Made by a program: the position numbers and the translations under genes. From positions 1 through 64,000 of the IMG/VR virus record IMGVR_UViG_3300012979_000038: DNA of 64,000 nucleotides; one strand, written 5' to 3'. Positions 7,672 to 59,157 of this stretch are shown here, in pieces; position 1 is the first letter of the stretch; each line of letters opens with the position of its first letter. The notes under the pieces were generated by a model. The model saw only the letters and a program-made list of their open reading frames with translations, did not search any database and had not been told where the DNA came from. Source of the stretch: a virus.

Positions 7672-7717
7672 TTTGAAATTTATGAAGTTTTTTCTATATT
7701 GTATATGTAATTAAAAA
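7672..7717 (+). promoter_or_regulatory. class A promoter-like motif
   Basis: TTTGAAATTTATGAAGTTTTTTCTATATTGTATATGTAATTAAAAA, ending 11 nt before the ATG at 7728. Confidence 0.55.
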
Positions 7718-10404: not shown

Positions 10405-11265
10405 ATGAAGAGAGTAAATATAGATATTTTAATAGGTTTGCCAGGAAGTGGTAAAACTTATTATTGTGATGATATTCGCAAAAATTATAATGAAAACGTT
10501 TTATATTTGGATTTTGATGAATTACCATGTGTAGAATGTTTCAAATTACCTCAAAATGAAATAAATAACATTTTCAGATATAATGTTATAGATAGAATTT
10601 TGGTTGATGGTCTATTTACTACAATAGAAAGTCAAAATAAAATTGTTGAAAAGTTTGTTGAGTTACATAAACAACACAAAAATGATAAACGGCATGTAGC
10701 ATTCCATTTTAACTTCATTTACTTCAACGAAGACCGTGAAGCATGCTTACATAATGACAGTTTCCGTCCAGCAGAACGTTCTGCTAAAATATCTATTAAA
10801 AATCTTCCATTAGAGTGTCCTAATGTTCAAAACTTTAATAATGTTTACGGTGATGGTTTCCGTATTTCATTTGATTTGAAAAAGAAAGACATCCATAAAG
10901 TTACTGGTTATGAATTATTTGTAGAAAATAATAGAGATGATTTTTATTCACGTAAAACTGGTAAAAACATTATAGTTTCACAAGATTGGTGTCTTGGTGG
11001 TACAGTTGGATGTTGGGATGGAACTGTGTACGAATGTACTCCAGATCCTCAACCAGAAGACTTCGAAGAGTTAGATAAATTATTATCTGAGTATGCTCCA
11101 AAGATTTCTTTCTTAGAGTATAAGAAAATTAAAAAAGACGCAGTTAGAATCGAGGAAAATGTAGAGTATGATTATTACGGAGGCAAAGAAACTCGAAGAT
11201 ACTATGTATGTGATTTAGATGTTTTATTTGGACATTTAGTTGAACTTGGATATATTAATGCATAA
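10405..11265 (+). CDS. P-loop polynucleotide-kinase-like protein (kinase domain only)
   Basis: Walker A ILIGLPGSGKTYY, similar to the T4 Pnk N-terminus IGCPGSGKST. Adjacent to the RNA ligase. No DxDGT phosphatase motif seen. Confidence 0.5.
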   Translation: MKRVNIDILIGLPGSGKTYYCDDIRKNYNENVLYLDFDELPCVECFKLPQNEINNIFRYNVIDRILVDGLFTTIESQNKIVEKFVELHKQHKNDKRHVAFHFNFIYFNEDREACLHNDSFRPAERSAKISIKNLPLECPNVQNFNNVYGDGFRISFDLKKKDIHKVTGYELFVENNRDDFYSRKTGKNIIVSQDWCLGGTVGCWDGTVYECTPDPQPEDFEELDKLLSEYAPKISFLEYKKIKKDAVRIEENVEYDYYGGKETRRYYVCDLDVLFGHLVELGYINA

Positions 11266-11269
11266 TAAT

Positions 11270-11557
11270 ATGGATAATCGTCAAAAACAAATAGTTGATA
11301 ACTTTATTAGTATTTTTGCTAATTCTCATAAATCATCTGATGCATTTAATTTATTGGACATAGTATGTACAGGTGCATCATATGTATTAACTTATGGTGA
11401 ATTAATAGAAATACTTAATAAAGTTAAAAATGAGTTAAAAACTTTGATTGGAAAAGATAAGCCAAATGGTTATGGATTTAAATTTTCCGATGAAGATATT
11501 CTTTACTTTAAACGTGGAATTCAGCAAAAAATCAATATTCTAAAACAAATACAATAG
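11270..11557 (+). CDS. hypothetical protein
   Basis: ORF from the internal ATG 11270 chosen to avoid overlap with the kinase gene; alternative start at 11240. Confidence 0.35.
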   Translation: MDNRQKQIVDNFISIFANSHKSSDAFNLLDIVCTGASYVLTYGELIEILNKVKNELKTLIGKDKPNGYGFKFSDEDILYFKRGIQQKINILKQIQ

Positions 11558-11563
11558 TAAAAA

Positions 11564-11616
11564 TTTGAAATTTTCATATTTTGTTCTATATTAGTATTGT
11601 AATATTAATTTAAAAA
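11564..11616 (+). promoter_or_regulatory. class A promoter-like motif
   Basis: TTTGAAATTTTCATATTTTGTTCTATATTAGTATTGTAATATTAATTTAAAAA, ending 11 nt before the ATG at 11627. Confidence 0.55.
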
Positions 11617-11626
11617 CAAATACTTT

Positions 11627-12280
11627 ATGACAAAACGTACGAAATTTTTAATTGTTTTTGGAGTTATTTTTGTTTCATTAACTATAATCTTTCCAACAAT
11701 TTATAACAGTGTAAAAACACGTAAAGCAACATCTGAATATCCTTACATAGTTTATCGCGGTAATATGGAGCTTAAGCTTCAAGAGAGTAAAGGTCTTTTG
11801 GTAGATGAGGTTAATGCATATATTGCACGTATTGCTCCAACAAGTAACCTTAACGGTCGTATTCTTGTTGAGTTATGTGATGAATATAATATTGATATTA
11901 AGTTTGTTCTTGCGCAAGGTCAAATCGAATCACATTATGGTACTCGTGGGTTGGCATCAAAAACTAATTCAGTTTTCAATGTTTTAGCTTATGATGGTCA
12001 TTCTTATAACCAAATTTGTAAAAACGGAAAGTATTCTCATCCAGATCATTCCATTCGTCCTTATCTTCAATTGTTAGCAGATGATTACCTCGTAGATGGT
12101 AAAACTGAATATGATTTAATGGATGAATTTGTAAACAAAGACGGTAATAGATATGCCTCTGCAAAAGATTACGAAAATAAACTTAAGAGTACATATAACT
12201 CAATTTCAGATACAACAAACACAAATATTGATTATTTGATGAAACAATATAATCATTACAAAATTATAACAGGTAGTTGA
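11627..12280 (+). CDS. membrane-anchored glucosaminidase-like peptidoglycan hydrolase (lysin candidate)
   Basis: N-terminal TM helix. AQGQIESHYGTRGLASKTNSVFNV resembles the mannosyl-glycoprotein endo-beta-N-acetylglucosaminidase core AQAxLESGWG...NNLFG. Confidence 0.5.
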   Translation: MTKRTKFLIVFGVIFVSLTIIFPTIYNSVKTRKATSEYPYIVYRGNMELKLQESKGLLVDEVNAYIARIAPTSNLNGRILVELCDEYNIDIKFVLAQGQIESHYGTRGLASKTNSVFNVLAYDGHSYNQICKNGKYSHPDHSIRPYLQLLADDYLVDGKTEYDLMDEFVNKDGNRYASAKDYENKLKSTYNSISDTTNTNIDYLMKQYNHYKIITGS

Positions 12281-12334
12281 ATTTAGGTTCAACTATTTGC
12301 TATATTTTTTTAATACAACTAATATTTTTAACAG

Positions 12335-13585
12335 ATGGAATTTAGTCAAGATATACAGAAGTTTTTAGAAGAGAATTATCCGAACGTCGATATTTATAAT
12401 ATGACTTTGGAAGAATTGGAAGCATTCAAAACAGAGATTATTCAAAAACGCCAAGAATATGCGTTGTTGGAGAATGCTCAAAAGGTTTTAGCTAACGCAG
12501 CTTATGGTTCTTCTGCAAGTAATGTTTTCTATTTCTTTAACGTTAATTTGGCGGCGGATATTACTGGTGAATGTCGAGAATTAACAAAATCAATGTGGCA
12601 TAACTTGGAGAATTTCTTTCATGAAACTATTTGGGAACGTAAAGATTTGTGGGAACAGTTTGATTTTGCATTGGATGAAAGTAAACATGATTGGTATCGT
12701 CAACAGGTAGTATCTTGTTATAGTGATACTGACTCTGTTTATACAACTTATGAAAATTTCTTTAACTGTTTTACGGCTGAAGCTTTAGCTAAATATCCAA
12801 CAACTGAAGATAAGATTCATTGGATTTTGAAGTTTAATAAAGAGTTCCTTGATAAACAGAATAATAGATGGTGTGAGGAAATGTATAATCCTCGTCATGG
12901 TCAAAATGTTCATGAGTTCGAGTTGGAAACTGTTTGTGAATCTCAAATTATTCTTAAGAAAAAGAAATATCTTAAAGGTCTTCGTTATAATAAAGGTAAG
13001 TTCCTTGATAAACCAAAGATGTCAGGTACAGGTATTGAGATTATCAAATCAACAACTCCAAAACTTTGTCGAGAGATTTTGACAGATCTTACACGTATTT
13101 TAATGTTTGAGTTCTCCGAAGAAAACCGTGACGAATTTATTATGATGTTCAATAATAAAATTCAAGAGTATCGTAAAATTTTCTATAATGCACCAATTGA
13201 AGATATTTCGCAATCTGTAGGTGTTGGAGCTTATAAGAAATATATTATTGAGGATGAGGAACAATTGATTCTTGGTAAACAATGTCCAGTATCTGTACAT
13301 GCGATTGGAAGATTTAATTATTTGGCACATAAAAATGGTGAAGATTCTAAACGAACATATTCTGGAAAGATTAAGTATTATAACATCATAACAGGCAAGG
13401 AAGGTAAAAATCCGGTTATTGGTTACTTTGGTTTCCCAGCAGGTGAATTACCAGATTGGGCTCCACCAATGCATAAACAAACACAGTGGAAGAAAAACGT
13501 AATTGACCCAATTAACCGTTTCTTGGAAGTTATGAAAATTCCATTGGCAACATCTTCATCAGTAATTCAGTTGGACTTATTTTAA
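12335..13585 (+). CDS. family B DNA polymerase, C-terminal fragment (fingers/palm/thumb) as a stand-alone ORF
   Basis: Motif B KVLANAAYG (Kx3NSxYG-like), motif C YSDTDSVY, KKKKY (KKRY). No motif A (DxxSLYPS) and no exonuclease motifs. The gene upstream is a lysin, so the N-terminal half is encoded elsewhere. Confidence 0.7.
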   Translation: MEFSQDIQKFLEENYPNVDIYNMTLEELEAFKTEIIQKRQEYALLENAQKVLANAAYGSSASNVFYFFNVNLAADITGECRELTKSMWHNLENFFHETIWERKDLWEQFDFALDESKHDWYRQQVVSCYSDTDSVYTTYENFFNCFTAEALAKYPTTEDKIHWILKFNKEFLDKQNNRWCEEMYNPRHGQNVHEFELETVCESQIILKKKKYLKGLRYNKGKFLDKPKMSGTGIEIIKSTTPKLCREILTDLTRILMFEFSEENRDEFIMMFNNKIQEYRKIFYNAPIEDISQSVGVGAYKKYIIEDEEQLILGKQCPVSVHAIGRFNYLAHKNGEDSKRTYSGKIKYYNIITGKEGKNPVIGYFGFPAGELPDWAPPMHKQTQWKKNVIDPINRFLEVMKIPLATSSSVIQLDLF

Positions 13586-13598
13586 AATATAAAACATA

Positions 13599-14234
13599 AT
13601 GAACGATAAACTTAGAAATGCAATAACATTATACTTGGATATTCTTAATACTAATGATGAATTAGTAAAACGAGTTAATAACGCAGTTGTAGACGTAAAC
13701 GATGTTATAAGCAAAATTTGGGAAATAGATTTACCATATGTTTTTAGCGGACAGATTGTAGGTAGACTTGTTGAAACATGTTTGGCTAAACATATGATAA
13801 ATATAAATGGGTGTTGGTATAAACATGGTAATGAAAACTCCAGAGAAAAAGATTTTGAATGTGTAGCAGTTTTCAGTAAACTTAAATCATCCCCATATTT
13901 GAAAGATTTTTTAATATCTGTAGATAAAGACCCAGAAGATATCTATAATTTCGGTATTGAATTAAAATGTTCTGGTAGAGCAAATACACCAACCGGAAAC
14001 AAATCATATGCGATGGACACGACTGCCGAAAAAGATAAATCATCGTTCTATATATTTATAAGATATAAAGAAAACAAAAAAGAGTTTAATGGTAAGTCTT
14101 ATTTAAATAGTATAGAATTAAAGGGAGCTTGGTTTGGTTTCTTATCACAGTCTGATTGGAAAACATATAACTCTGGACAAAACGCGACAGTTTCTGCGCA
14201 AACAATGAAGAGTAATTTTATTAAGTTCATATAA
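13599..14234 (+). CDS. hypothetical protein
   Basis: 211-aa ORF. Confidence 0.4.
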   Translation: MNDKLRNAITLYLDILNTNDELVKRVNNAVVDVNDVISKIWEIDLPYVFSGQIVGRLVETCLAKHMININGCWYKHGNENSREKDFECVAVFSKLKSSPYLKDFLISVDKDPEDIYNFGIELKCSGRANTPTGNKSYAMDTTAEKDKSSFYIFIRYKENKKEFNGKSYLNSIELKGAWFGFLSQSDWKTYNSGQNATVSAQTMKSNFIKFI

Positions 14235-14238
14235 ACAA

Positions 14239-14266
14239 ATGCCGAAAATTTTCGGCATTTTATTTT
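14239..14266 (+). terminator. rho-independent terminator
   Basis: ATGCCGAAAATTTTCGGCAT hairpin followed by TTTATTTT. Confidence 0.6.
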
Positions 14267-14306
14267 GAAAATTTTTAGATTTTTACTATATTAAATATGT
14301 AATTAA
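14264..14306 (+). promoter_or_regulatory. class A promoter-like motif
   Basis: TTTGAAAATTTTTAGATTTTTACTATATTAAATATGTAATTAA, ending 19 nt before the ATG at 14325. Confidence 0.5.
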
Positions 14307-14324
14307 CACAAAATTTCAAAATAT

Positions 14325-14987
14325 ATGATTATCGAAATTGTTCCTGATTTAAGAAAAAAGATTTACAACACCAAGATTGGCTATAGTACTTATAACCTTG
14401 TAAATTGGTATGGTGATTTTTCAACAATGACAGAAGATGATTTTGTTGAAGGTTTTAAACAGTTCGCTGCAGCTATCTTCATAACTTACGAAAATTTTGT
14501 TACACCTGAACTTATTGAACGTGTAGAAAAGTGTAAGGAACGTCAAATGAATAATTGGATTAAGTTTGCTGACCAAAAATACAAACGTGAAAGTTCAAAA
14601 CAAAAATTTCTTGAGCGAAAACGCCAGGAAGTAGAAAACGATACTTACTTTAATCGAATTGATACCTATTTCTTCTTTGATGTTGATCCAACTCAAGATA
14701 CACAGAACGGAATTCCACAATGGGCAACAATTACCAAGGAACGTGTTAATGATGAATTGTGGTTGAGACATCTTTATCGATGTTTGATTGAAGAACCTTG
14801 GTTCCGTAAATCAACTATCTTGTCATTGTTTTATGAAGCTTCAAACGACACTAAGAAATTTTCTTTCCGTCCGCAAGTAAAATTCATTATGGATGAGGAT
14901 TCAATGATTGAACGAGATAAACAAGCTAGAAAATTGAGTGAAGATATAGCTCATTTTTATAGTGATTGCAGATACTGCGAAGATTAA
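14325..14987 (+). CDS. hypothetical protein
   Basis: 220-aa ORF. Confidence 0.4.
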   Translation: MIIEIVPDLRKKIYNTKIGYSTYNLVNWYGDFSTMTEDDFVEGFKQFAAAIFITYENFVTPELIERVEKCKERQMNNWIKFADQKYKRESSKQKFLERKRQEVENDTYFNRIDTYFFFDVDPTQDTQNGIPQWATITKERVNDELWLRHLYRCLIEEPWFRKSTILSLFYEASNDTKKFSFRPQVKFIMDEDSMIERDKQARKLSEDIAHFYSDCRYCED

Positions 14988-19236: not shown

Positions 19237-22200
19237 TTAGATTTCAATAAATGGTAAACTATTAAATGGTGTTTGATAAATTGCTTTAGTTGAGAATGAT
19301 ATTGCTAAAATTTCTGAGTTGTTAATTGTTAGAGCTACGTTTTCTCCATCAACTGCAGATTTTAGTGGAGCGAATGCTACAGGAGCAATAATACCTCCTA
19401 CAGTCAAATCTTCTTTTTGTTTAACATTTAATAGTGATGCAGTTAAAATGTAATTATTAACATTTGCAAGCATTTCATTGATTGATTGAATGATTGTTCC
19501 TTCTGGATCTTCACCTCTAAGTAATGCTACTGTATCTTTAATACTTTCAAGACCTTCAAGTAATAACAAGTATTCTTCTTTTGAACCAACGAAACATTTA
19601 AGAATTGAATTGATTCCTTCTACTTTAAATAAGTTTCTAAAGTATGGGATTGCCATTCTTAATGTACCAGAACCTGCGAGTGCTGGCCATTCTTTTTCTG
19701 CTAAACCATCGATGTCATTGAATGACCAGTTAGAAGGTTCGCCATTTGCGTTGTTTTTGTTATTATTTCTATTCCAGAATTCTGTTATCCATTCGTTACA
19801 GATTGCATTAGATAAGAATTTACCTGAAATCCAAGATTTTGTCAAGCATTCAGATTCTCCAGATGATTCAACGTTATAAGAACTAGCATATTTTGGATTA
19901 CCTGATGAAACTGAAACTTTATTTATTTCATCCAAATAATCTTTCAAACCTGAGCTAGCACCATAGTACATCTTTTTAATGTTAGCCAAGTTGTTATTAG
20001 CAGTATTCCAACCGTTGCAGAAATCATTAAGTAATTCCCAATCTTCTGTAGTTAAATCAGAACTTTCTACGTTAGGTAAGAAGCAATAATCATTTGTTCT
20101 TACATAATCTAAAGGAATTGCTATGTAATTAGGTTTAATAATTAAACCAGATTTTTGAATAGCTGCATGTTGTTCATTAATTGTAGCATCTGATGATTCA
20201 TATCCAATTACTTCTTTACCACCATTGCCAGTGAATTGTGCAATTGGTAAATGATTTTTTGGAATTGATGGTGAAACATAAAGAACACCAATTAATTTAC
20301 TTGAATCACCCATCTTATCAATAGCATCTAAATTGTAAATTAGACCATAGTTATCAATGAAATATGTTCCAGGATTACATTCTTTAGGACTTCCGTATGA
20401 TGCCAATGAAGAAACTGCTGTAAATTGAACGTCTTTTGTTACATTAATAACATCTGTTCCAACTTCGTATCTTGCTGCACAATGTAAAATAATAGATTGT
20501 TCTAAGTCAATTGTGCTTTCTCCAATATGAGGAATTACAATTCTTACTCTAGCATCTTGCCAATTATCATTATTAACATATTCTACAGAGAAACCTGATA
20601 TAGGAGCATTAGCTACTGTTGTAAATGTATTATCTGTAAAGTATTCAGGTACACAAGTGAATGTACATGGATAAGAAACATCTTCAGCAACAGATTGAGC
20701 AGTTAATGATACTTTGTATTCAATTACTTTTGAATCACCAGCTTCTGCAGCAAGTTTAGTTGGCATCTTAGATTCAATATTTTCATCTTTATCAACTGAA
20801 AGAATATTGATAACTTCAGGATAAACGATTTGAGAATCAATTGTACAATCTTTTATGAAATCATGAACACCATTTCCATTTTCTAATGTTGCATCACCAA
20901 GGTGTTTAATAGTTAATGTAAATTCATCTTCATCATTGAATGATAAGTATGTTTTACCAGATTTATTTGATCTAACTTTAACTACCATAGATAATGGATT
21001 GTTTTTATCGATTTCGATAGATGTTCTATTGTTAACATTTAAGTCATAATTACCAATAACTGATGATTCTACTGGAATATTATAGTAATATTCTCCCCAT
21101 ACTTCATAGTATTGAGTGTTATATGGTCTTACTGTGTAATTAAATGTTTTATCTGCTTCATTCAATAAGATTGTTTTATCTTCAACAACATTACCTTCAG
21201 CATCTAACAAATCAAATTCATTAGCGTAAATAGGATTTACAATGAATGTTACTTGTTTATTGATTGGACAACCTACACCCATCTTATTATCATATTCTGT
21301 ATCAAATAATACATAAATATTAGCAGTAATTGTTACTGTTTGAGGAATAAATGATGGAGTCAATGTGAAAGAACATTGTGTTAAATCTTTATTTACTACA
21401 GTTGAAACTTTTAGAGATGCGGAATCTGCTGGATCAAGAGTTACTCTAAACGTTTTAATAGGAACGTTAATAGTATTATTTGGTAATAATTCTATTGAGA
21501 ATTTATGATCTTTGTTATCTTCTAAAGAAACTGTATCAGATTCTAATGTTCCAATATGTTCATTATCACAAACTAATTTGAAATCTGTTACAACATGAAC
21601 TTCTTTTAATGTAATATAAATAGCGTTATCAGCATCTGTATCACCATTAATTACAGGATATAAAACGAAGATTTGTTGTCTATTACGTGTTGAGTTACCA
21701 TTGAATAATGATTTAAATGTACAAGAAGATGTATTAGAATCATATGTCAATTGTAAGCAAGGAACAGCAGGACCAGGGTTACCGGTTGCGTTATTAATAT
21801 TATGTGTTCCATTTACATAATTTAATTTAACAGGATTTCCACCATTTGCGGGAATGTACCAAGCTTCATACCACATTGTTTCACCTTCGTTTACAGGGAA
21901 CTTAGTACATTTGAAAGTATATTCAGTTTCATGAATACCTTCGTACCAACCTTCCGTACACATTGCTGGCATATGTTGTGGTTTGTTGTCTATATCGTCA
22001 TTCCATTCCATTGAAGATGACCAGAACATACCTTCATCAGCACTAAATCTTAATGCAGAACCAGTAGAGAATACGTTTGCACCATATTTTTCGACGATAG
22101 CATCGTATTGTTCTTTAGTTAATTGTCTATCTTCAATTGAACTAATTAATGATAATGTACCTGTGAAATTTAATAAGTTGAATTTATCAACTACATTCAT

Positions 22201-25200
22201 TACGAAATCAACAGGAACATTTTCACAAGTAATATTTTCTAATGTTAAGTTGCAAGATTTGTGTGGAACATTTGCTTCTGTAAGAGCTGCGTCCCAATCA
22301 TTAACAAACTTAACAATATCAATACCAGTTACATTTCTTAGAACTACATTCTTAAGAGCTGCATCTGGAGTATATTTAAATACTTCAGCAGTTTGTTCAG
22401 CTGCAGGAGTAAATGTAACGTTTCTTAATTCGATATCAGAAATACGGTTTACTGGTAATGAAACTTCGTTTAAGATAACACCTTCAGCTGGTTTAAATGT
22501 TGTAATTGAAGAACCAATTGCACGATAAACGTGTAAGCTTGCTAAGTTGTTAATCTTGAAATCACCTAAGTGATATTCTTCAGAATCATTAAAACAGTTA
22601 CGTATATCAACTTCCTCAAGAGTATTAAGGTCGTTCATATTACTTAATAATGCTACGTTACATCTTGTTGGACCAAGAATTTCTAATGATAAACCATCTG
22701 GAGCGTTTACTGCTTGTGGAGCATCGTAATATTCTCCAGCATTAATTGTTATTTCATTACCACCAACTGTCATAACTATTGCATTTTCAGTTTTGTTAGT
22801 ATAACGATAAACGTCTGAAGTTCTGAATTCGTCAGAGATACCGAATAACAATTTTGTCATCATTGTACCTTTTGATTTAATCCAGTTATTAGCAATATTA
22901 CCAATAAATTCTAGTTTACCGAATGAGTGACCAGCTTCAACAGCTTTTCTAAAGTCAAGAACTTTAATCTTATCAACACCCATTATAGAGAATGGAGAAG
23001 AAATACCGTTCCATGTTGAGTTTGTTGTCCATTCCCATGTACTATCTATTTCCATTTCTTTAGCCCAATGTTCAGGTACTGCACCATCTAAGTCGGAGTT
23101 AGTTAAACCGAATACATTTTGACGAGCTGCTGTAATAGAGAATATGTCTGTATAGATAGAAGCATTTTCATTCTTAATACCCATATAGAACTTAATAGTA
23201 TTTTGAGAATATTCTCCAGAGAACCATTTAGAATCGTATAAGTTGAAACGGTTAGTTACCCACCATGTACGGTGTTGTGTTCTAGAACCATGGATAAAGT
23301 TCAAATAACCTGCACCAGATGGTAAATATTTAATTGTTTCTTGAACGTTATACATTCTTTCTGGCCACCAAGCTGCTTGTTTGTTGTTATACATATCTAA
23401 CAATGCTTTTGAAGATAGTACACCAGAGTTATACATCGCTGTATCAAGTTGTTTTACTTTATTCATAAAGTCAGCGTCATTTTCTAACAAGTTCCAAAGA
23501 ACTGAAGTAGGACCTGCGTAAGCGAATTGACCTTTTGAATAATCGTAAGTATTTCTATCTACTGTCCAGTGGAATACGATGTGACCATCATTACGAACAC
23601 CAAGAGTTGTATCGTTATCATAGTTGATATAATAGTAGTGTAGTCCGTCTTCTGTTGTTAACATTGAGTTCTTAACAACTTGGTCAATACCAGCGAATCT
23701 CATCAAGTAGATATAGTATGCTGCCAATTTCCAAACATCGAAGTAATCATATTTCTTTTCAGAGAAATATTCCATATATGTTCTACCGGCGAAAGATTTA
23801 CCATCTTTATCAACTTCATAAGCATCTCTATCAACAGAACCAACGTATTGTTTTTGTTGACCGTAGTTATCAGTATAATTATACTTGTTACCACCAGCTG
23901 CTTCTAAGTAAACAGATACATAATAATCTTCTTCGAATGGTGAACCAGCGATTTTATCACCATAATTAACTTGTTCGCCATCACCTACTCTTTCATCATC
24001 GAATGCAATATCTTCTACGAATGTACCGTAAGTTGCATCGAATGAAGCTACTCTTCCTTTATAAATGTGGTTTTCGATTGTTTTTGTTGAAACTGTCTTA
24101 GATACATTTTCATAATCGATATTTGTTAACATTTTATAAACTGGAGCATTGGCTCTCAAGTCATCTGAATCTTTATATTCTAAGTTATTATAAACTTTAT
24201 TACCAGCTTCTTCTAATTGTCTTTGATCTAGTACGAATACTAAAAGACCATCTTCAACAGCTTTGTCATATTCAGCTTCTGGAATTTCTACGTATGGAGA
24301 AAGTGTATAACCATCCAATCCATCAACTAAATAATCAACGCCTGGTTTACAGAAGTGAACGAATCTCCACATTGACTCAATATTATGAGTGTGTGATACA
24401 AGATATTCATCACCATCAGGACCTTCAATTTCAACGTCTGGCCAACGTGGTTCATAATCTGACATTACGAAACGTGTACCCATGAAAGTATTTTCTTCTT
24501 CACCAGGTGCAGCATGAACGTCAGTAATTAAGTTAACACCTTGTCCAAATAATGAACCGTTGTTAGATGCTTCCCAACATTCTACCTTTTCTGCGCTAAA
24601 TATTTTATTACCATTTTCATCATAAATATCTTCGAAACCGAATAGAGGAGTAGAACCTTTATCTGTCATGATGTTGAATTGACCTACGAATTCAGCATTA
24701 CCATATTTGCGGAAGCCGTTTTCATCATATTGAACATTACCAGCTTCGTCTCTCACTAATGGACAAGCAAAAATAACGATTGGTTTACCATCACAAGATG
24801 TACGAATATCGATACCATCTGCAAGTTCACCCATACGTTGTTGAGCTAATGTTCTACATAGATAACCAGTTTTACCTGAATCATCAGTACCTTGAACCAT
24901 CTTCATTGCATTACCCCATAATCTACCAGCACCAGCATTATGCGTCATAGAAGATTCAGCGAAGTCAGTTTTTAATGTCCATCTGTTTGTCCAACCTGAT
25001 CCTTCATATTGTTTCCAACAAGCTTGATCTACATAATATGTTTTATCTTCCTTAAGTGCATTTTTACCTTTTAGTTTCTTAAATTCTGGAACATCATATT
25101 CAACACCAGTTACAGGGTTTTGAATTTTTGAATATCCATCAATTGAATAAAGAGTAGCACCTGAATAACGGAATTGTTTTACTGTTAACCAATCACGTAA

Positions 25201-27804
25201 TGGTTGATACATAGGAACATAATATTCATTAGTTGAACCATCACCATAAGAGCAAGGATAGAAATCACCTGTTGCTGATTTATAGTAAAGTAAATTACCT
25301 CTACTTTCTAGAACTTCAGCTTCTTGATGGTTATATAATTTATGATATTTATCTTCACAAGTTTTCTTATTACATTGGAATTGACCAAGTTTAGAATAGT
25401 CATTTAATTCACCATGTGTAAATTCACCTGCACGATAGAATTCTGTCCAGTATTTAGCAGAACCGTCTAATGTTTTACCATCATTAGTTTTACCGAAGTA
25501 TAAACGGAAGTTTTTCTTTGGATAGAACATTGATGATGTACCTTGACAAGATACCCAAGCACCTCTTGCATAGAAATCTAAGTTAGGATCTGTTGGATCA
25601 TAGAATTCTACGTCAAATTCAGCGTTATTACTCTTGTTTGTAGCAGTATTAAGAATGTTAACATCACCATACATAACCATTGTAGGAATAGTATTCTTAA
25701 CAATATCTAGAGAAATACTATTTGTACCTTCTACATAAATATTATTTCTATCATACATTTCCAATAGGTTATCTGATTCTGCAATGAAGTTTGTTAATTC
25801 ATCATCTAATGATAATGCTTTATTATAAACACGGATTGAACGAATCTTAACGCCAGCTTTACCGTTTGGATCACCAATAACGATACCAGGATTTTCAGGA
25901 TTATTCCATTTAATAGAACCACCGAAAGTAGTTGCTCTATCCAAAATACCATTCATGATAATGAATGTTTTATTAGCATATAAGTCAACCGTTTGGTCGT
26001 AATTTTCTTTATAGTTACCAACGATAAATGCAAGTTTCAATCTTTCATTATCTTTAAAGTTACCAGTTACTACACCAGATGGAGACATATCACCAACTGA
26101 ACAACCACAAGCTGAAACTTCAATATGTGATCTGTTAGATTTATCTCTTACTGATAAAATAACTGCGTTTTCATCTTGAACATTAAATGTTTCGAAATCA
26201 ACTTCAAATGTTAAACCTGAATTTGTATAGTTATCGAATACATTAAATGGAATAAATGCAGTAGCACCACTATTCAATACCAAAGCTTTTCCATCCCAAC
26301 CAGATGTATCATTCCAAAGTACGTTGTTAAATTGAACATTAACATTACGATAATTCCATGTTGCAGGATTTGGTTCTGAGTTACTTCTGTTTTGAGCTTC
26401 AAGATTCAATACTAAAGATTCTTTAGTTACTGCAATTTGCGCAGCAGATTTAGCAACTTCTACAACAATATGCATAGAATCCAAAGGATTACCATTTGTA
26501 TCTTTACTTAATGTAGTAATATTGATATCGATATTACCATAAGTTAAGAATACATATTCGAATAGTTGTTCTTCACCAGATGAAATAGAACGCATCATAG
26601 AAGCAACATTTTCTGTTGTTTCACCTTCAGTTTTTGTTAATGCAAATTCCAAAGTTGTTGCAGCACCTGATGTACTAAACAAACCATAATTAAATGATGT
26701 AGAAGAGTATTGTTGTGTTTTAAATGAAATTGTATCTTCTGGATTAAATAATGCACCTGAACCTAAATCTTGAGAATACAAGATATAAGTCATATTCATT
26801 GGTGTATTTTTATCAACGATAACAAAGTCATAATATTTTGTCATTGAATAAAGACGAGAACCATCTTTATTTTCTACATACATTCTAAATTGGATTGTGT
26901 TTTTACCCAAATTGAATATAGGATTAAGTTCACCTAAGTCGTTGGTTAGATAAATAGACATGTTTGAACTATATTCTGGGTTTTTAGAAGCCATATAACC
27001 ATCAGTTGCTGTAGTTGATAAAGCTCCGTATTCTTCTGGAACCCAAGATTGGTTCAATGGTTTACCATTTACGTACCATTCCATGTATTTTTCACCTTGA
27101 CCACTAATAGAGTAAGGAATTGTAAAGTAGTTGTCATCTAAACCTAATGCGCTATCAAATTCAACTCCCTTCTTATTATCAAATGAAGATTCCAAAAGAA
27201 GTTCAACAACTGTATAAACAAAGTTTAATGTTGTTGTAGCTTGAGTAGATACACCAGTAAGAGTTACTGTGATGTTGTTTGTACCAACAGTCAAGTAATT
27301 ATCAATATTGATGTATTTTGGAATACCGTCTTGATAATTGTCGAAGTCAACAGGGAAGTTTTGAATAACTTGTGTAATTGTACCACCATTATTGAATACG
27401 ATACGTGCTTGTACTGCTTCAGTAATAGGGTTTTGACCACTATCCTTAACAATATAACGGAAGTAAAGTTCTTGACCTTTTTCTGAAGAAAGTATTGTTA
27501 CCATTTGACGAGATGTTTCATCTACACTAATAGATGCAGGAGCAGGAGCATCGAAAGTTGCTAAAAGCAAACCAGCATGTTCACCTGTTGTGTCATTAGC
27601 ATATTTGTTATAATCATCTTCATCAGCAAATACATAATACTTCAACGCAGTACGGTCATAGTGTAAATAACCAAACTTTTTTGCCAAAGTGTCTTTAATG
27701 AACTTTTGAACGAACTGACCTGATACCGCAGCACCACCGGTTGAGTTATCACCACCCCAGTCAACGGTTTTGTCAATCTCTTGTTCCCAAAGTTTTTCTG
27801 CCAT
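19237..27804 (-). CDS. giant virion structural protein (2855 aa), fibre/receptor-binding-like
   Basis: Uninterrupted 8.5-kb ORF in beta-rich N/T/Y/G composition. It leads a co-directional fibre gene cluster. Confidence 0.6.
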   Translation of the reverse strand: MAEKLWEQEIDKTVDWGGDNSTGGAAVSGQFVQKFIKDTLAKKFGYLHYDRTALKYYVFADEDDYNKYANDTTGEHAGLLLATFDAPAPASISVDETSRQMVTILSSEKGQELYFRYIVKDSGQNPITEAVQARIVFNNGGTITQVIQNFPVDFDNYQDGIPKYINIDNYLTVGTNNITVTLTGVSTQATTTLNFVYTVVELLLESSFDNKKGVEFDSALGLDDNYFTIPYSISGQGEKYMEWYVNGKPLNQSWVPEEYGALSTTATDGYMASKNPEYSSNMSIYLTNDLGELNPIFNLGKNTIQFRMYVENKDGSRLYSMTKYYDFVIVDKNTPMNMTYILYSQDLGSGALFNPEDTISFKTQQYSSTSFNYGLFSTSGAATTLEFALTKTEGETTENVASMMRSISSGEEQLFEYVFLTYGNIDINITTLSKDTNGNPLDSMHIVVEVAKSAAQIAVTKESLVLNLEAQNRSNSEPNPATWNYRNVNVQFNNVLWNDTSGWDGKALVLNSGATAFIPFNVFDNYTNSGLTFEVDFETFNVQDENAVILSVRDKSNRSHIEVSACGCSVGDMSPSGVVTGNFKDNERLKLAFIVGNYKENYDQTVDLYANKTFIIMNGILDRATTFGGSIKWNNPENPGIVIGDPNGKAGVKIRSIRVYNKALSLDDELTNFIAESDNLLEMYDRNNIYVEGTNSISLDIVKNTIPTMVMYGDVNILNTATNKSNNAEFDVEFYDPTDPNLDFYARGAWVSCQGTSSMFYPKKNFRLYFGKTNDGKTLDGSAKYWTEFYRAGEFTHGELNDYSKLGQFQCNKKTCEDKYHKLYNHQEAEVLESRGNLLYYKSATGDFYPCSYGDGSTNEYYVPMYQPLRDWLTVKQFRYSGATLYSIDGYSKIQNPVTGVEYDVPEFKKLKGKNALKEDKTYYVDQACWKQYEGSGWTNRWTLKTDFAESSMTHNAGAGRLWGNAMKMVQGTDDSGKTGYLCRTLAQQRMGELADGIDIRTSCDGKPIVIFACPLVRDEAGNVQYDENGFRKYGNAEFVGQFNIMTDKGSTPLFGFEDIYDENGNKIFSAEKVECWEASNNGSLFGQGVNLITDVHAAPGEEENTFMGTRFVMSDYEPRWPDVEIEGPDGDEYLVSHTHNIESMWRFVHFCKPGVDYLVDGLDGYTLSPYVEIPEAEYDKAVEDGLLVFVLDQRQLEEAGNKVYNNLEYKDSDDLRANAPVYKMLTNIDYENVSKTVSTKTIENHIYKGRVASFDATYGTFVEDIAFDDERVGDGEQVNYGDKIAGSPFEEDYYVSVYLEAAGGNKYNYTDNYGQQKQYVGSVDRDAYEVDKDGKSFAGRTYMEYFSEKKYDYFDVWKLAAYYIYLMRFAGIDQVVKNSMLTTEDGLHYYYINYDNDTTLGVRNDGHIVFHWTVDRNTYDYSKGQFAYAGPTSVLWNLLENDADFMNKVKQLDTAMYNSGVLSSKALLDMYNNKQAAWWPERMYNVQETIKYLPSGAGYLNFIHGSRTQHRTWWVTNRFNLYDSKWFSGEYSQNTIKFYMGIKNENASIYTDIFSITAARQNVFGLTNSDLDGAVPEHWAKEMEIDSTWEWTTNSTWNGISSPFSIMGVDKIKVLDFRKAVEAGHSFGKLEFIGNIANNWIKSKGTMMTKLLFGISDEFRTSDVYRYTNKTENAIVMTVGGNEITINAGEYYDAPQAVNAPDGLSLEILGPTRCNVALLSNMNDLNTLEEVDIRNCFNDSEEYHLGDFKINNLASLHVYRAIGSSITTFKPAEGVILNEVSLPVNRISDIELRNVTFTPAAEQTAEVFKYTPDAALKNVVLRNVTGIDIVKFVNDWDAALTEANVPHKSCNLTLENITCENVPVDFVMNVVDKFNLLNFTGTLSLISSIEDRQLTKEQYDAIVEKYGANVFSTGSALRFSADEGMFWSSSMEWNDDIDNKPQHMPAMCTEGWYEGIHETEYTFKCTKFPVNEGETMWYEAWYIPANGGNPVKLNYVNGTHNINNATGNPGPAVPCLQLTYDSNTSSCTFKSLFNGNSTRNRQQIFVLYPVINGDTDADNAIYITLKEVHVVTDFKLVCDNEHIGTLESDTVSLEDNKDHKFSIELLPNNTINVPIKTFRVTLDPADSASLKVSTVVNKDLTQCSFTLTPSFIPQTVTITANIYVLFDTEYDNKMGVGCPINKQVTFIVNPIYANEFDLLDAEGNVVEDKTILLNEADKTFNYTVRPYNTQYYEVWGEYYYNIPVESSVIGNYDLNVNNRTSIEIDKNNPLSMVVKVRSNKSGKTYLSFNDEDEFTLTIKHLGDATLENGNGVHDFIKDCTIDSQIVYPEVINILSVDKDENIESKMPTKLAAEAGDSKVIEYKVSLTAQSVAEDVSYPCTFTCVPEYFTDNTFTTVANAPISGFSVEYVNNDNWQDARVRIVIPHIGESTIDLEQSIILHCAARYEVGTDVINVTKDVQFTAVSSLASYGSPKECNPGTYFIDNYGLIYNLDAIDKMGDSSKLIGVLYVSPSIPKNHLPIAQFTGNGGKEVIGYESSDATINEQHAAIQKSGLIIKPNYIAIPLDYVRTNDYCFLPNVESSDLTTEDWELLNDFCNGWNTANNNLANIKKMYYGASSGLKDYLDEINKVSVSSGNPKYASSYNVESSGESECLTKSWISGKFLSNAICNEWITEFWNRNNNKNNANGEPSNWSFNDIDGLAEKEWPALAGSGTLRMAIPYFRNLFKVEGINSILKCFVGSKEEYLLLLEGLESIKDTVALLRGEDPEGTIIQSINEMLANVNNYILTASLLNVKQKEDLTVGGIIAPVAFAPLKSAVDGENVALTINNSEILAISFSTKAIYQTPFNSLPFIEI

Positions 27805-34695: not shown

Positions 34696-35901
34696 ATGGC
34701 AAGAAAAAGTGTAACTTTAAGTAAAACATCAGAAAAGAAACTAGTATCGTTTTTAAAACACAATCAAGAATATATAACTGAAGAATTTGAAACAAAATTT
34801 AGGGAACAAGTTATATATGACATTAAAAATATTAGAGAATGCTCCGAAAAGAAAATCGTTGATTTTTATTGTGAAGTAGCAAAATCAATGTTAGAATCTG
34901 GAGAAGTCAATTTCAATGACGAATTCTTTAATACTCTCAAAAATAAAGTTAGATCTAAATTATCTCAAGTTTATACATCAGGTAAAACATTCGATAATAA
35001 TATCGACATTTATTTTAATGAGGTAAAATCTATCTATATTAAAAATCCTCAAAACGAATCAGATGGACTTGAGTTTATTCCAGAAAACAGAGACATTTTC
35101 ATTAAAAACAATTTGAAGTTAGTTATTGAATGTGCTAAACGTTATCGTGATCTCGGTTTACCATTCGAAGATTTAATTCAAGTTGGAAATTATGGTTTAT
35201 TAATTGCATTTGATAAATTTGATACTGATAGAGCAAATTTACGTATTGCGATTATGAACGATATTAAAAATTCAGCTACAGAAACATTTACTAAATTAGA
35301 AGCTGAAGAAATCATTCGCAAAAATTTCACTTATTCTAAAAACTTAGAACAAACAATAAATTCTATTCCAGAAAATGGATTTGAATCAAAGGAAAAATTT
35401 ATTGAGTGGTCTAAGGTAAATATCAAAACAGCAGTATTCGCTTCAGTGGCTTTCCAATGGATTAGAGCAAATATCATTATTGAGCTCAATAAATATGGAA
35501 AGATCTTAAAAATTCCAAATTCAGTTAAAAATGATTTAGGTGCAGCGTCAATCATAAGATTGGATTCGTTGAACCCATATACTGATGATTGTTATCATGA
35601 TAATCAAATTTCAGATTACATTAATAATGAATTTAAAACTGAATATGAATTATATGATGAACAAGAACAAGAAGAATTATACAAAGAAACTGTAGAAGAT
35701 CTTTTATCTATTTTAAACAATCAAGAACGTCGTATTATTAAAAAGAAGTTTGGAATAGATTATCCGTATGAAATGAGTCCTAATGATATTGCAGAGAACG
35801 AAGGATTACCTGTTAATAAAGTAAAACAGATAATTAATTCATCAATGAAAAAATTATCTAACGAAGCTAATAGAAGCGGAAAGAAATCTATCTTTTCGTA
35901 A
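34696..35901 (+). CDS. sigma-70 family RNA polymerase sigma factor
   Basis: Region 2.2 DLIQVGNYGLLIAFDKFD, region 2.4 FQWIRANII, region 4 HTH ERRIIKKKFGIDYPYEMSPNDIAENEGLPVNKVKQI. Confidence 0.8.
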   Translation: MARKSVTLSKTSEKKLVSFLKHNQEYITEEFETKFREQVIYDIKNIRECSEKKIVDFYCEVAKSMLESGEVNFNDEFFNTLKNKVRSKLSQVYTSGKTFDNNIDIYFNEVKSIYIKNPQNESDGLEFIPENRDIFIKNNLKLVIECAKRYRDLGLPFEDLIQVGNYGLLIAFDKFDTDRANLRIAIMNDIKNSATETFTKLEAEEIIRKNFTYSKNLEQTINSIPENGFESKEKFIEWSKVNIKTAVFASVAFQWIRANIIIELNKYGKILKIPNSVKNDLGAASIIRLDSLNPYTDDCYHDNQISDYINNEFKTEYELYDEQEQEELYKETVEDLLSILNNQERRIIKKKFGIDYPYEMSPNDIAENEGLPVNKVKQIINSSMKKLSNEANRSGKKSIFS

Positions 35902-37757: not shown

Positions 37758-38339
37758 ATGAAAACACTTAAAGATTACATATTAGAGAAAAGTTGGGATA
37801 AATATCAACAAGGTGTTTATCCCGACGATTCTATTAAAAGCGCTATTTATGATTATGTAAGTGGTATGACAAGCGGAGTAAATTATGACCTCCGAAAAGG
37901 AAATACCAGAGGTTCTAAAAAAGTTATTGATAAATTGGATTCTGCTTTTAAAGATGCAAACTATGCAGATGGTAAAATATTAAATGTTTGGAGAACTGTT
38001 GACTGGGATTATATGAAAAATATATACGGTGCAACTAGAGAAAACATAAAAGATTTTGTTGGAAAAACTTTTGAGAATAAAGGTTATATGTCAACAACGA
38101 AGAAGTTTGGTTCACCTTGGGGTAAAAGTTGGATGAAAGATGATTTGGTTATGCATATTACTTCAAAAGATCCTTATCCAGTTTTAGATATAAATAGAAT
38201 TTTTAAATCATCTGAAATAGATTGTGCTGACCAAGAAGAGTATTTATTACCAAGAAGTACTAAATTGGTTTTGAAAAAAATATCTTATCATAGAAATAAA
38301 CATAAAACCATCGAATTAGAGATGGAAATTGAATCATGA
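37758..38339 (+). CDS. mono-ADP-ribosyltransferase (C3/Alt-like) with CTS-like N-terminus
   Basis: R-S-E triad: YDLRKG (Arg), GYMSTTK (STS motif), QEEYLLPRST (Q-x-E followed by LLPR as in C3 exoenzyme QLEMLLPR). N-terminus MKTLKDYILEK. Confidence 0.75.
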   Translation: MKTLKDYILEKSWDKYQQGVYPDDSIKSAIYDYVSGMTSGVNYDLRKGNTRGSKKVIDKLDSAFKDANYADGKILNVWRTVDWDYMKNIYGATRENIKDFVGKTFENKGYMSTTKKFGSPWGKSWMKDDLVMHITSKDPYPVLDINRIFKSSEIDCADQEEYLLPRSTKLVLKKISYHRNKHKTIELEMEIES

Positions 38340-53160: not shown

Positions 53161-54114
53161 ATGAAGTCATTAAATCAATACATAAACGAGAAACTTGTTT
53201 TGAAGTCTAATAGCAAAATTAGAAAACATCAAGAATATAATTATCATCCTAAAACAAATGAGGAATTAAGAACGTTAGTTAATGAACTCATTGAAGAACG
53301 TGGTATTGAAGCTGATTTAAACGACATTGATACATCAAAAATTGATGATATGTCACATGTATTTGAAAACAAAAAATTTGATGGAGATATTTCAGACTGG
53401 GACGTTTCTAATGTAAGATATATGGGACATATGTTTTTATATAATTTTGATTTTACCGGAAAAAACACAGATTTTAGTAACTGGGATGTATCAAACGTTT
53501 ATCATGCCGATGGAATGTTTGCTGGATGTCAAAAGTTTGAAGGTAAAGGATTGGAAAACTGGAAATTGAAATCGTTAGGAGTAGCAAAAGAAATGTTCGC
53601 CAATTGTCATGAGTTAAATTTCGACATAACAAATTGGGATATTTCTAATATAGAATACTTTGAATCGATGTTTATAAATTGTAAAAAATTCAATCAAGAT
53701 TTATCTAACTGGAAATTCAATCATAATGTTAGAAATTTAACTGGTTTATTTATGGGGTGTGAAAGTTTCGAAGGAAAGGGATTGGAAAATTGGGATGTTA
53801 GTAAAATAACAAATATGAGAAGTATGTTTGCTGGCTGTGCAAAATTTAATGCCGATATAACTAAATGGGATGTTTATTCAGTTATTGGCATGTGTAATAT
53901 GTTTCATGGATGTAAAGAATTTAATCAGGATTTATCTAATTGGAATGTAAAAAATCTTATGGATATTACTGAAATGTTTAGGGATTCTGGTATGACATAT
54001 AATTTAGCAAAATGGGCACCTAAGCTTCACAATAAATGTAAAATAAAAAATGCATTAACTAATACACCGGTAACTAAATCAAAACGTCAACCTTTCTGGT
54101 ACTTTAGAAAATAA
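53161..54114 (+). CDS. DUF285-repeat protein, paralog 1, with CTS-like N-terminus
   Basis: Tandem ~22-aa repeats F.GDIS.WDVSNV..M..MF typical of DUF285 (Mycoplasma-type repeat). N-terminus MKSLNQYINEKLVLKSNSKIRK shared with 4 paralogs. Confidence 0.7.
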   Translation: MKSLNQYINEKLVLKSNSKIRKHQEYNYHPKTNEELRTLVNELIEERGIEADLNDIDTSKIDDMSHVFENKKFDGDISDWDVSNVRYMGHMFLYNFDFTGKNTDFSNWDVSNVYHADGMFAGCQKFEGKGLENWKLKSLGVAKEMFANCHELNFDITNWDISNIEYFESMFINCKKFNQDLSNWKFNHNVRNLTGLFMGCESFEGKGLENWDVSKITNMRSMFAGCAKFNADITKWDVYSVIGMCNMFHGCKEFNQDLSNWNVKNLMDITEMFRDSGMTYNLAKWAPKLHNKCKIKNALTNTPVTKSKRQPFWYFRK

Positions 54115-56549: not shown

Positions 56550-56594
56550 TTTTAATTACAAATACAATATAGTAAAAAATATGAAAATTTCAAA
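56550..56594 (-). promoter_or_regulatory. class A promoter-like motif (minus sense), near-identical to consensus
   Basis: Minus-sense TTTGAAATTTTCATATTTTTTACTATATTGTATTTGTAATTAAAAAA, 12 nt before the ATG at 56538. Confidence 0.55.
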
Positions 56595-56639: not shown

Positions 56640-57632
56640 ATGAAAAGTTTAACCCAACATATAACAGAGAAACTTGTATTAACTAATAAATCAAAAATAC
56701 GAGGAAAACATACATATAATTATTTTCCAAAAGATTTGAATGAATTACGTGACATCATGTATAAATTAATTGATGAACGAGGAAATAAAGCAAACTTGAA
56801 CGATATTGATGTTTCTAATATAACAACATTAGAAGGATTATTTAGAGAGTTTGATGAGTTTAACGGTGATATTTCGCAATGGGACGTTAGTAATGTTTTG
56901 ATTATGACAGATACATTTGCTGTATCTGAATTTACTGGTGATATTTCTCAGTGGGATGTTTCTAGTGTTACTAATATGCAACGCATGTTTCATGATTCAG
57001 AATTTGATGGAGATATTTCAGATTGGAACGTTCGTAATGTAGAGAATATGATTGATATGTTTAATGGCAGCAAATTTACTGGTGATTTAAATAAATGGGA
57101 TGTTAGTAAAGTAAAAGATATGTCAGGTATGTTTGGTGAATCTATATTTGAAGGTAATATTTCTGATTGGAACACGAAAGCAGTTGAGCGTATGGATTGC
57201 ATGTTTGAAGATAATTTGGTATGGAATGGCGATATATCTAAATGGGATGTTTCTAATGTTATTTCAATGATACGTATGTTTCATTATTCAGGATTTACCG
57301 GTAAACATGGTTCATTAAAAAATTGGAATGTTGAAAAGGTAATAGATGCACAATTAATGTTTGCCGAAACTGAGTTTAACGGTGATCTATCTGGTTGGAA
57401 ACTTAAAAGCGCAAAAACTATTAGATCCATGTTTTTACGTTCATCTTTTAATAATGACAGTATTAAAGATTGGAATAAATATTTAAACAGTGTAAGAAAT
57501 ATGAATTTCATGTTTTCTGAAACCAAATTTTCACAAGATTTATCTCATTGGACTATTGATAAACGATGCGACTTTGTTGGAATGTTTGATGATTGTCCTA
57601 TAAAAGAAGAATATAAACCAAAATTTAAATAA
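56640..57632 (+). CDS. DUF285-repeat protein, paralog 2
   Basis: N-terminus MKSLTQHITEKLVLTNKSKIRG; repeats GDISQWDVSNV; C-terminus CPIKEEYKPKFK. Confidence 0.7.
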   Translation: MKSLTQHITEKLVLTNKSKIRGKHTYNYFPKDLNELRDIMYKLIDERGNKANLNDIDVSNITTLEGLFREFDEFNGDISQWDVSNVLIMTDTFAVSEFTGDISQWDVSSVTNMQRMFHDSEFDGDISDWNVRNVENMIDMFNGSKFTGDLNKWDVSKVKDMSGMFGESIFEGNISDWNTKAVERMDCMFEDNLVWNGDISKWDVSNVISMIRMFHYSGFTGKHGSLKNWNVEKVIDAQLMFAETEFNGDLSGWKLKSAKTIRSMFLRSSFNNDSIKDWNKYLNSVRNMNFMFSETKFSQDLSHWTIDKRCDFVGMFDDCPIKEEYKPKFK

Positions 57633-57633
57633 T

Positions 57634-58332
57634 ATGAAAAGTCTAACACAACATATAACAGAAAAACTTGTACTAAACTCCAATTCAAAGATTAGAAAAA
57701 ACAAAGAATATAATTATCATCCTAAAACAAGAGCTGAACTAAAAAAACTAATAGAACAACTTATTAAAGAACGTGGTTATGAAGCAGATTTAAACGATAT
57801 CGATACATCTTTAATAACAGATATGTCAAGTTTATTTTTTGGATCGTATTTTAATGGAAATATATCTGAATGGGATGTAAGTAATGTTGATAATATGGAT
57901 GGAATGTTCAATGGATGTAAATTTACAGGCGAAAATGGAGATATATCTGGATGGAATGTAAATAATGTAGAAGATATGAGTTTTATGTTTAGTGATTCTG
58001 AATTTAACGGTGATATATCTGATTGGAATGTATGTAAAGTACAGAACATGACATGTATGTTTTTAAACTCAAAATTTAATGGAGATTTATCTAAATGGAA
58101 TGTTGGCAATGTAAAATATATGACAAGTATGTTTAAAGAATCTGAATTTACTGGAGAAAATGGAGATATATCTAATTGGGATTTACACAGTATATCTATG
58201 ATTGATGAGATTTTTAAACAAACAAAATTCAATAAAGATATATCTAAATGGAATATTAATAAAAATTGCTCAACAGTAGATATGTTTAAGGAATGTCCTA
58301 TAAAAGAAGAATATAAACCTAAGCTTAAATGA
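57634..58332 (+). CDS. DUF285-repeat protein, paralog 3
   Basis: N-terminus MKSLTQHITEKLVLNSNSKIRK; C-terminus CPIKEEYKPKLK. Confidence 0.7.
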   Translation: MKSLTQHITEKLVLNSNSKIRKNKEYNYHPKTRAELKKLIEQLIKERGYEADLNDIDTSLITDMSSLFFGSYFNGNISEWDVSNVDNMDGMFNGCKFTGENGDISGWNVNNVEDMSFMFSDSEFNGDISDWNVCKVQNMTCMFLNSKFNGDLSKWNVGNVKYMTSMFKESEFTGENGDISNWDLHSISMIDEIFKQTKFNKDISKWNINKNCSTVDMFKECPIKEEYKPKLK

Positions 58333-58334
58333 TT

Positions 58335-59156: not shown

Positions 59157-59157
59157 T

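Follow-up and report, generated by a model that had tools for sequence, protein, structure and literature searches.

A Stand-Alone Gene for the C-Terminal Part of a Fingertip-Split Family B DNA Polymerase in an IMG/VR Virus

The Polymerase Gene and Its Product

The DNA analysed here, referred to as the window, is a stretch of 64,000 nucleotides from the IMG/VR virus record IMGVR_UViG_3300012979_000038 (positions 1 to 64,000). An open reading frame on its plus strand (12335..13585; ATG start, 416 aa) encodes a piece of a family B DNA polymerase (polB). The reading frame covers the second finger helix with motif B (KVLANAAYG, residues 50-58, nt 12482-12508), the palm with motif C (YSDTDS, residues 129-134, nt 12719-12736), which holds the catalytic aspartates, and the thumb; a primer-terminus binding motif of the KKRY type is present as KKKKY (residues 208-212, nt 12956-12970). 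The Pfam family DNA_pol_B (PF00136, E=8e-11) is matched from profile position 146 of 453 onward only, and phrog_262, the PHROG family of full-length T4-type polB, is matched only at its positions 499-846. The profile of phrog_1918 ("DNA polymerase") has just 382 positions, approximately the length of this C-terminal half (C-half), and is matched end to end with E=6e-45. Reading frame, Pfam, PHROG and motif positions therefore agree with the initial annotation, which had described a C-terminal polB fragment carrying motifs B and C and a KKRY-type motif, and the restricted profile matches equally uphold its statement that motif A and the exonuclease motifs are missing. Its estimate of a start about 45 residues before motif B holds with a small adjustment, Met1 lying 49 residues ahead of the motif.

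The catalytic and DNA-binding residues of the C-half show no variation in an alignment of 21 diverse homologues, in which K50, N54, Y57 and G58 of motif B and K209, K210, K211 and Y212 of KKKKY are invariant. The dN/dS ratio is 0.075 between the window gene and its 85%-identical relative in locus L141, and 0.068 between two other members of the family (L035 and L037). These values of 0.07-0.08 exclude, as far as this can be tested, the degenerate duplicate that the initial annotation had considered. An AlphaFold model of the C-half (pLDDT 79) displays the layout of second finger helix with motif B, palm and thumb, and its best structural matches are the gp43 polymerases of RB69 and T4, with a TM-score of 0.6 over the query; the match spans the whole query and around 30% of the target.

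Upstream Region, Assembly and Expression

The gene immediately upstream (11627-12280, a 654-nt ORF) encodes a glucosaminidase-family protein (PF01832, E=5e-12), which confirms its earlier description as a glucosaminidase-like lysin. Four in-frame stop codons lie between 12281 and 12334, and a terminator-like hairpin (12270..12299, plus strand) with a T-rich tail behind it overlaps the lysin stop codon. The stop codons together with the hairpin rule out that a simple frameshift or read-through joins the two reading frames, and the hairpin would separate the polB fragment from the upstream transcription unit. That the upstream ORF shares its frame with the polB fragment is a coincidence, given the four intervening stops. 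The gene order glucosaminidase, C-half, ScaI-like nuclease and 220-aa ORF is repeated in L142, from an independent JGI sample with 95% nucleotide identity, and also, for the part covered by locus L143, in the ENA contig k141_1621455, whose fetched overlap with the window (24.5 kb) shows 99.8-99.99% identity. An assembly frameshift, which had been named as a possible source of the truncation, is thus excluded as far as testable by the same local gene order in two independent assemblies.

The ATG of the C-half is preceded, at a distance of 35 nt, by a CTATATT element (12300..12306, plus strand) that several other genes also have, 34-41 nt ahead of their start. Upstream homology with the 85%-identical relative L141 is confined to 40 nt, and the element falls inside this conserved stretch. 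In the window, a T-run followed by CTATATT is found 34-41 nt before ATGs at 7694, 11586, 12300 and 14286 on the plus strand and at 56572 on the minus strand; the total count of CTATATT is not above chance (25 observed, about 36 expected), and a sigma-70 promoter scan performed no better on the window than on shuffled sequence. CTATATT might conceivably be a promoter element, and the element and the upstream hairpin would be compatible with an expression unit of its own for the C-half gene. A Shine-Dalgarno sequence is missing from all 29 gene starts that were inspected in the window, and their leaders are A/T-rich, so the A/T-rich leader of the C-half is typical for this genome. A/T-rich leaders without Shine-Dalgarno sequences are characteristic of translation initiation of the Bacteroidota type. 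Related contigs, however, bear MAG binning labels of Clostridia and Erysipelotrichaceae, which leaves more than one candidate host group.

Phage Context

Other genes of the window encode a T4-type portal, a gp32-like protein, NrdD and a sigma factor. By portal sequence, the nearest phages are huge uncultured phages (LR7565xx), Sphingomonas phage PAU, Tenacibaculum phage PTm1 and the Lak megaphages; PTm1 and Lak have been placed in "group 2.2" of the jumbo phages (PMC7824862). Goat and rumen MAG collections contain related contigs, and the virus is best explained as a jumbo, distantly T4-like myovirus of the ruminant gut.

Several further features accompany the polymerase gene. The gene directly downstream of it (13599-14234, plus strand) has a product of 211 aa in which a ScaI-type restriction-endonuclease domain is recognised (PF09569, E=1e-11). 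The 95%-identical L142 has this gene too, but neither L003 nor L141 has it beside the C-half, and its product may be a nuclease of the mobile or free-standing kind. A giant ORF of 2,855 aa occupies 19237-27804 on the minus strand and is followed on the same strand by ORFs of 804 and 1,032 aa. On the plus strand, the T4-type portal gene is closely preceded by a gene for a sigma-70-like factor (regions 2 and 4), and an ADP-ribosyltransferase (PF03496, E=1e-12) lies between the portal gene and a baseplate-hub-like gene (34696-35901 and 37758-38339, respectively). An array of five paralogous DUF285 genes (BspA-like leucine-rich repeats) is found at 53161-54114 and 56640-60201 (plus strand), and similar arrays adjoin the polB N-half in L027 and L135. 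The window contains no tRNA genes.

Position of the Break

Through a continuous relative (L004), the break can be mapped to about residues 505-510 of RB69 gp43, between ...EALHNPN and LSVDEP.... This is the variable fingertip loop between the two long finger helices, past motif A and ahead of motif B. The N-terminus of the window protein, MEFSQDI (12335..12355, plus strand), is the conserved start of stand-alone C-halves, and it aligns to ...HIT-FHQDI... inside continuous relatives, directly past the column at which stand-alone N-terminal halves (N-halves) end. The ORF is the intact and strongly conserved gene of a gp43B-like C-terminal subunit of a fingertip-split family B polymerase.

Search for the N-Terminal Half

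With two distant full-length polB sequences as queries, no exonuclease or motif A sequence was detected in any of the six frames of the window; the same queries do detect the C-half, with E of about 1e-16. Neither the N-halves of relatives whose C-halves are 62-66% identical to that of the window nor an N-half profile HMM gave a match in the window. The portal region of the window, where an N-half was expected because it lies beside the T4-like portal in L020-L025, contains none. The source contig, recovered through exact matches of the terminal genes of the window, is 80.9 kb long (ENA k141_1621455, 80,883 bp), and its 16.9 kb beyond the window hold no N-half either. With none on the 80.9-kb contig, an N-half of this genome would have to be over 20 kb upstream or over 59.6 kb downstream of the C-half. 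The earlier proposal that the N-terminal part is not adjacent and is encoded elsewhere is supported by the matching stand-alone N-halves of relatives and by two related contigs that carry both halves. From these relatives, this genome would be expected to have an N-half as well.

Split and Continuous Relatives

A large protein database yielded 566 relatives of the C-half; among the 120 best, almost every one is a stand-alone protein of 411-425 aa with 58-85% identity, and the contigs reach 473 kb. A comparable number of N-half relatives (614) was found, and nearly all of the best 120 of them have 506-535 aa and match only the exonuclease domain of Pfam (PF03104). Within IMG/VR, stand-alone C-halves like that of the window are present in L003, L032, L034-L039 and L041, and stand-alone N-halves of 506-516 aa in L016, L018-L025, L027 and L029; continuous polB genes of 926-928 aa, the C-terminal part of which is 63-67% identical to the window ORF, are present in L004-L007, L009-L013, L015, L017, L030, L033 and L042. 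When the two sets are aligned jointly, the last residues of the N-halves (...EIDRLIKEKEAA, followed by the stop codon) and the first of the C-halves (MEFS.DI...) meet at one column, give or take one or two residues. The lengths fit accordingly, as N-half and C-half (511-516 plus 416 aa) add up to 926-932 aa, against 926-928 aa in the continuous relatives. The N-halves of relatives keep motif A (DFASLYPS) and the first finger helix.

Two contigs link the halves physically. The 223-kb IMG/VR contig 3300045988_118233 carries both on the same strand, 35,903 bp apart. In JGI Ga0310690_10000452 (88.9 kb; 88,924 bp), the one linked pair obtained by cross-matching the C-half and N-half protein lists, they are 2,856 bp apart with three genes between them, and the C-half is 67% identical to that of the window. 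No partner half was present within the fetched flanks (up to 10 kb per side, shorter at contig ends) of nine C-half and eleven N-half IMG/VR loci of the clade, and a scan of GTDB genomes returned four N-half loci only and no linked pair. On the 170-kb contig of L003, two pattern sets reported no N-half, a pattern-based scan being able to miss one, and the N-half of L003 may lie on a 66-kb contig of the same sample. None of the contigs examined has a continuous polB plus a separate half. On the 223-kb contig with both halves, 16 tRNA genes lie 3-9 kb downstream of the stand-alone N-half (L027:14700-20717).

Beyond this clade, loci L067-L122 (about 30% identity), taken to be largely from aquatic samples, have in nearly every case both halves on one strand with 3-9 kb between them. 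This interval contains ribonucleotide reductase genes and, directly upstream of the C-half, a conserved ORF of about 250 aa; both the small and the large reductase subunit are found there in L069 (11556-15320), and the large subunit in L067. By this wider survey, the split is both old and widespread. Loci L049-L054 encode distant stand-alone C-halves (24-27% identity, 453-473 aa) whose first residue lies about 30 aa ahead of motif B, with no N-half in the fetched flanks (up to 10 kb), and they may represent a second lineage with a dispersed fingertip split.

Inteins and Introns

It had been suggested that the two halves might be joined by an intron or intein. No intein residues are present at the fingertip junction, where the end of the N-half and the start of the C-half are flush with continuous homologues. 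No Rfam intron or ribozyme was found in window positions 11000-14500 at E<=1, that is, within 1.3 kb of the junction, and no Rfam intron in L003, L020, L027 or L039 at gathering thresholds. With lengths that sum without extra residues and no intron or ribozyme matches at the junction, the suggestion finds no support.

Intein Pfam matches do occur in the polB family at motif C only (PF14890 in P0027, P0099 and others), so that the motif C site conserved in the window gene is also an intein insertion site in several relatives. A fractured intein at motif C (YxDTD/S...HN/S), in which one ORF ends with an intein half and the next begins with the other, was observed in L008/L014, L028/L040, L055 and PTm1 (L126:3696-6502). 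The intein halves are separated by a gap of about 1.2 kb in L008 and L040 and, in PTm1, by ORF-240, a free-standing gene for a VSR-type endonuclease; the PTm1 polymerase is consequently in three pieces, the fractured motif C intein coming on top of the fingertip split. In L046/L047 (6397-8286, 9941-10891), polB is continuous across the fingertip and bears a 1.65-kb insertion just before motif C.

Homing Endonucleases and the Origin of the Split

The genes between the halves in Ga0310690_10000452 are a 186-aa ORF and two DUF7487 proteins, which match PHROG homing-endonuclease families (E=5e-17 to 1e-8). A DUF7487 gene is located directly upstream of the C-half in L141, L131, L138 and PTm1. The window has no DUF7487 gene, and the link to endonucleases is therefore drawn from relatives; the window lineage has lost this neighbour, and the lysin gene stands in its place. 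In L131 (4056-6037), two GIY-YIG/NUMOD homing-endonuclease genes 4-6 kb upstream of a stand-alone C-half are a further sign of mobile nuclease traffic at this locus.

When either half is analysed in a neighbour-joining tree, the continuous genes group as one clade (90-99% bootstrap) nested in a grade of split genes, and the nesting holds whether the root is placed on the continuous group of about 30% identity or on deeper near-split groups. A continuous clade inside a split grade hints at secondary restoration of an intact gene in the manner of homing-endonuclease gain and loss; simple distance trees with long branches cannot settle between restoration and a single split. That the continuous genes of the L004 type (926-928 aa) and of the L043-48 group are secondary, regained from a split ancestor, is a speculative possibility that we regard as rather doubtful. 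If it were true, the intact gene would have been regained by precise loss of a fingertip endonuclease cassette or by recombination with an uninterrupted allele, and the fingertip would cycle between an intact state, a near-split state (N-half, homing-endonuclease gene, C-half) and an irreversibly dispersed state. The window would then stand for a dead end, with each subunit gene on its own and regulated separately. Gene order around polB, compared between continuous and split genomes, does not reveal the rearrangement, as the flanks have diverged too far and only a lysin gene stays close to polB. With a single essential gene present in continuous, near-split and widely dispersed form at 55-85% identity, the clade offers a good natural series for endonuclease-driven gene splitting and its reversibility.

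A Two-Subunit Polymerase and Its Alternatives

The best explanation, to which we give a probability of roughly 85%, is a two-subunit polB split at the fingertip, whose N-terminal subunit is encoded elsewhere and assembles non-covalently with the product of the window gene. An ancestral polB would have been severed in the variable fingertip loop. Its first part would survive as an N-subunit, of about 511-516 aa to judge by relatives, that holds the 3'-5' exonuclease together with the N-terminal domain, motif A of the palm and the first of the two finger helices; the window gene would supply the rest as the C-subunit, with motif B on the second finger helix, motif C in the palm, KKKKY and the thumb. 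With a start codon for each, the subunits would be translated separately and would assemble 1:1 through the antiparallel finger helices and a shared palm sheet, with neither protein nor RNA splicing; non-covalent assembly is the most likely mode given that the junction shows no intein residues and no intron or ribozyme signal. The partner gene would be located beyond the ends of the 80.9-kb contig. The split is probably linked to the free-standing, homing-endonuclease-like DUF7487 genes, and a later genome rearrangement may have separated the halves in the window lineage. By analogy with published precedents, and from the purifying selection on the C-half, the two halves are predicted to form an active enzyme.

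Four other explanations deserve consideration. The seemingly independent expression of the C-half, far from any N-half, would suit a protein that has acquired its own function or another partner and no longer needs a polB N-half, and other split polymerase modules have been described in this phage group by Iyer et al. (PMC7824862). However, lacking motif A and its catalytic aspartate, the C-half alone cannot form a polymerase active site, yet motifs B, C and KKKKY are under the strict constraint of a working polymerase, and N- and C-halves co-occur in related genomes, which makes such independence quite unlikely. It is still harder to regard the ORF as a decaying remnant or partial duplicate with a full-length polymerase elsewhere doing the work. 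The genome beyond the contig could hold such a copy, but the low dN/dS, the invariant catalytic residues of the 21 homologues, the length and start shared by nearly all of the best 120 relatives, the about equal abundance of stand-alone N-halves with their exact fit to the C-halves, and the failure to find a continuous gene together with a separate half on any examined contig all point the other way, and we consider a remnant very improbable.

Joining of the halves after expression, by a split intein acting in trans as in the PolB of Nanoarchaeum or by trans-splicing of intron halves, can draw on the inteins that exist in the polB family. These inteins sit at motif C, however, whereas the fingertip junction is flush with no added intein-half sequence on either side, the window and four related loci yielded no match to group I or group II introns or other ribozymes, and the C-half begins with an ordinary ATG in a genome-typical A/T-rich leader; such joining is accordingly given very little credence. 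A truncation created by sequencing or assembly, through a frameshift or a chimeric join in a continuous gene, has nothing in its favour and a next to negligible chance of being correct: the upstream 654-nt ORF is a bona fide glucosaminidase gene, separated from the ATG by four stops and a hairpin, the gene order recurs in L142 (95% nucleotide identity) and k141_1621455, and no frame contains sequence resembling an N-half.

The two-subunit reading has consequences for annotation, since stand-alone proteins of 410-430 aa labelled "DNA_pol_B" and of 506-516 aa labelled "DNA_pol_B_exo1" in these jumbo phages of the gut would have to be treated as the two subunits of one replicase rather than as fragments or pseudogenes. 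For enzymology, many natural sequences of fingertip-split polymerases are added.

Comparison with Known Split Polymerases

A bicistronic gp43 (43A/43B) cut at the fingertip is reported for the T4-like phages 44RR, 25, 31, 65 and 133 in the passages of PMC3061061 and PMC2988022 that summarise Petrov et al. (2006, 2010). The likeness to the window gene extends to the RB69/T4-type polymerase, the fingertip cut between motifs A and B, and, as predicted for the window phage, two separately translated subunits without splicing. In Aeromonas phage 25, 43A and 43B co-purify and polymerise DNA (PMC2988022). The cistrons of phage 25 have a free-standing homing endonuclease gene between them, resembling the DUF7487 genes in the near-split relatives of the window clade, whereas the group I intron of its 43B cistron has no counterpart at the window junction, where no intron signal is found. 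The 43A and 43B cistrons of these phages are 2 bp to 3 kb apart, compared with more than 20 kb for the partner of the window gene and 35.9 kb in its relative; an adjacency of this kind is absent from the window and present in Ga0310690_10000452 (2.86 kb), and it describes the known examples rather than being a mechanistic requirement. The lineages also differ, as the window belongs with the PTm1/PAU/Lak-like jumbo phages of the ruminant gut and its polymerase is only about 25% identical to those of the T4 group.

Tenacibaculum phage PTm1 and Chryseobacterium phage MA9V-1 are among the closest cultured phages (the PTm1 portal is 36% identical; N-half identity is 27-30% for either phage), and they too have a split polB, encoded by ORF-236, ORF-239 and ORF-241 in PTm1 (AP019524) and by MA9V1_135 and MA9V1_138 in MA9V-1 (OR050627). 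Their N-halves have about 495 aa, and their C-halves start about 40 aa before motif B. The halves lie about 2.2 kb apart with two genes between them, whereas the partner in the window genome is more than 20 kb off, and the DUF7487 gene upstream of the C-half and the fractured motif C intein of PTm1 are both missing from the window gene. GenBank already annotates these genes as separate polymerase pieces, the annotations of cultured relatives including "intein-containing split DNA polymerase precursor" and "DNA polymerase subunit A".

For Rhodothermus phage RM378, a distant T4-like phage, the relevant passage of PMC3061061 describes a polB in two genes, cut between the N-terminal/exonuclease part and the palm. 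The family of the window, in contrast to this exo/pol split, keeps motif A and the first finger helix with the exonuclease half: the window ORF is without motif A, and the N-halves of relatives have it. The claim of the initial annotation that the break point differs from those described in T4-like phages is not supported: the break does differ from that of RM378 but falls in the same fingertip region as those of 44RR, 25, 31, 65 and 133.

Polymerases encoded by two separate genes are themselves already known from PhiKZ and Methanothermobacter thermautotrophicus. The family B polymerase of the jumbo phage PhiKZ consists of DNAP-N (gp82), which has motif A, and DNAP-C (gp50), which has motif C; the two are encoded separately and pair 1:1 (PMC13648687). 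The PhiKZ break lies in a lineage-specific palm insertion, leaving both finger helices on the C chain, and not at the fingertip as in the window; moreover, this polymerase belongs to a very divergent clade with extra domains and an Rhc accessory subunit. In M. thermautotrophicus, two genes 85 kb apart encode one family B polymerase (PMC3061061), an archaeal enzyme broken in the palm, about 83 residues C-terminal to the split site of Pfu. Pfu polymerase split near the fingertip by engineering forms a wild-type-like, fully active 1:1 complex, and the split relaxes its discrimination against gamma-phosphate-modified nucleotides (PMC3061061); artificial as it is, the active split Pfu indicates that a break at this position is tolerated. 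Set against these systems, in which T4-like and jumbo phages already exhibit the fingertip split, the only unusual point of the window polymerase is the distance of more than 20 kb to its partner gene.
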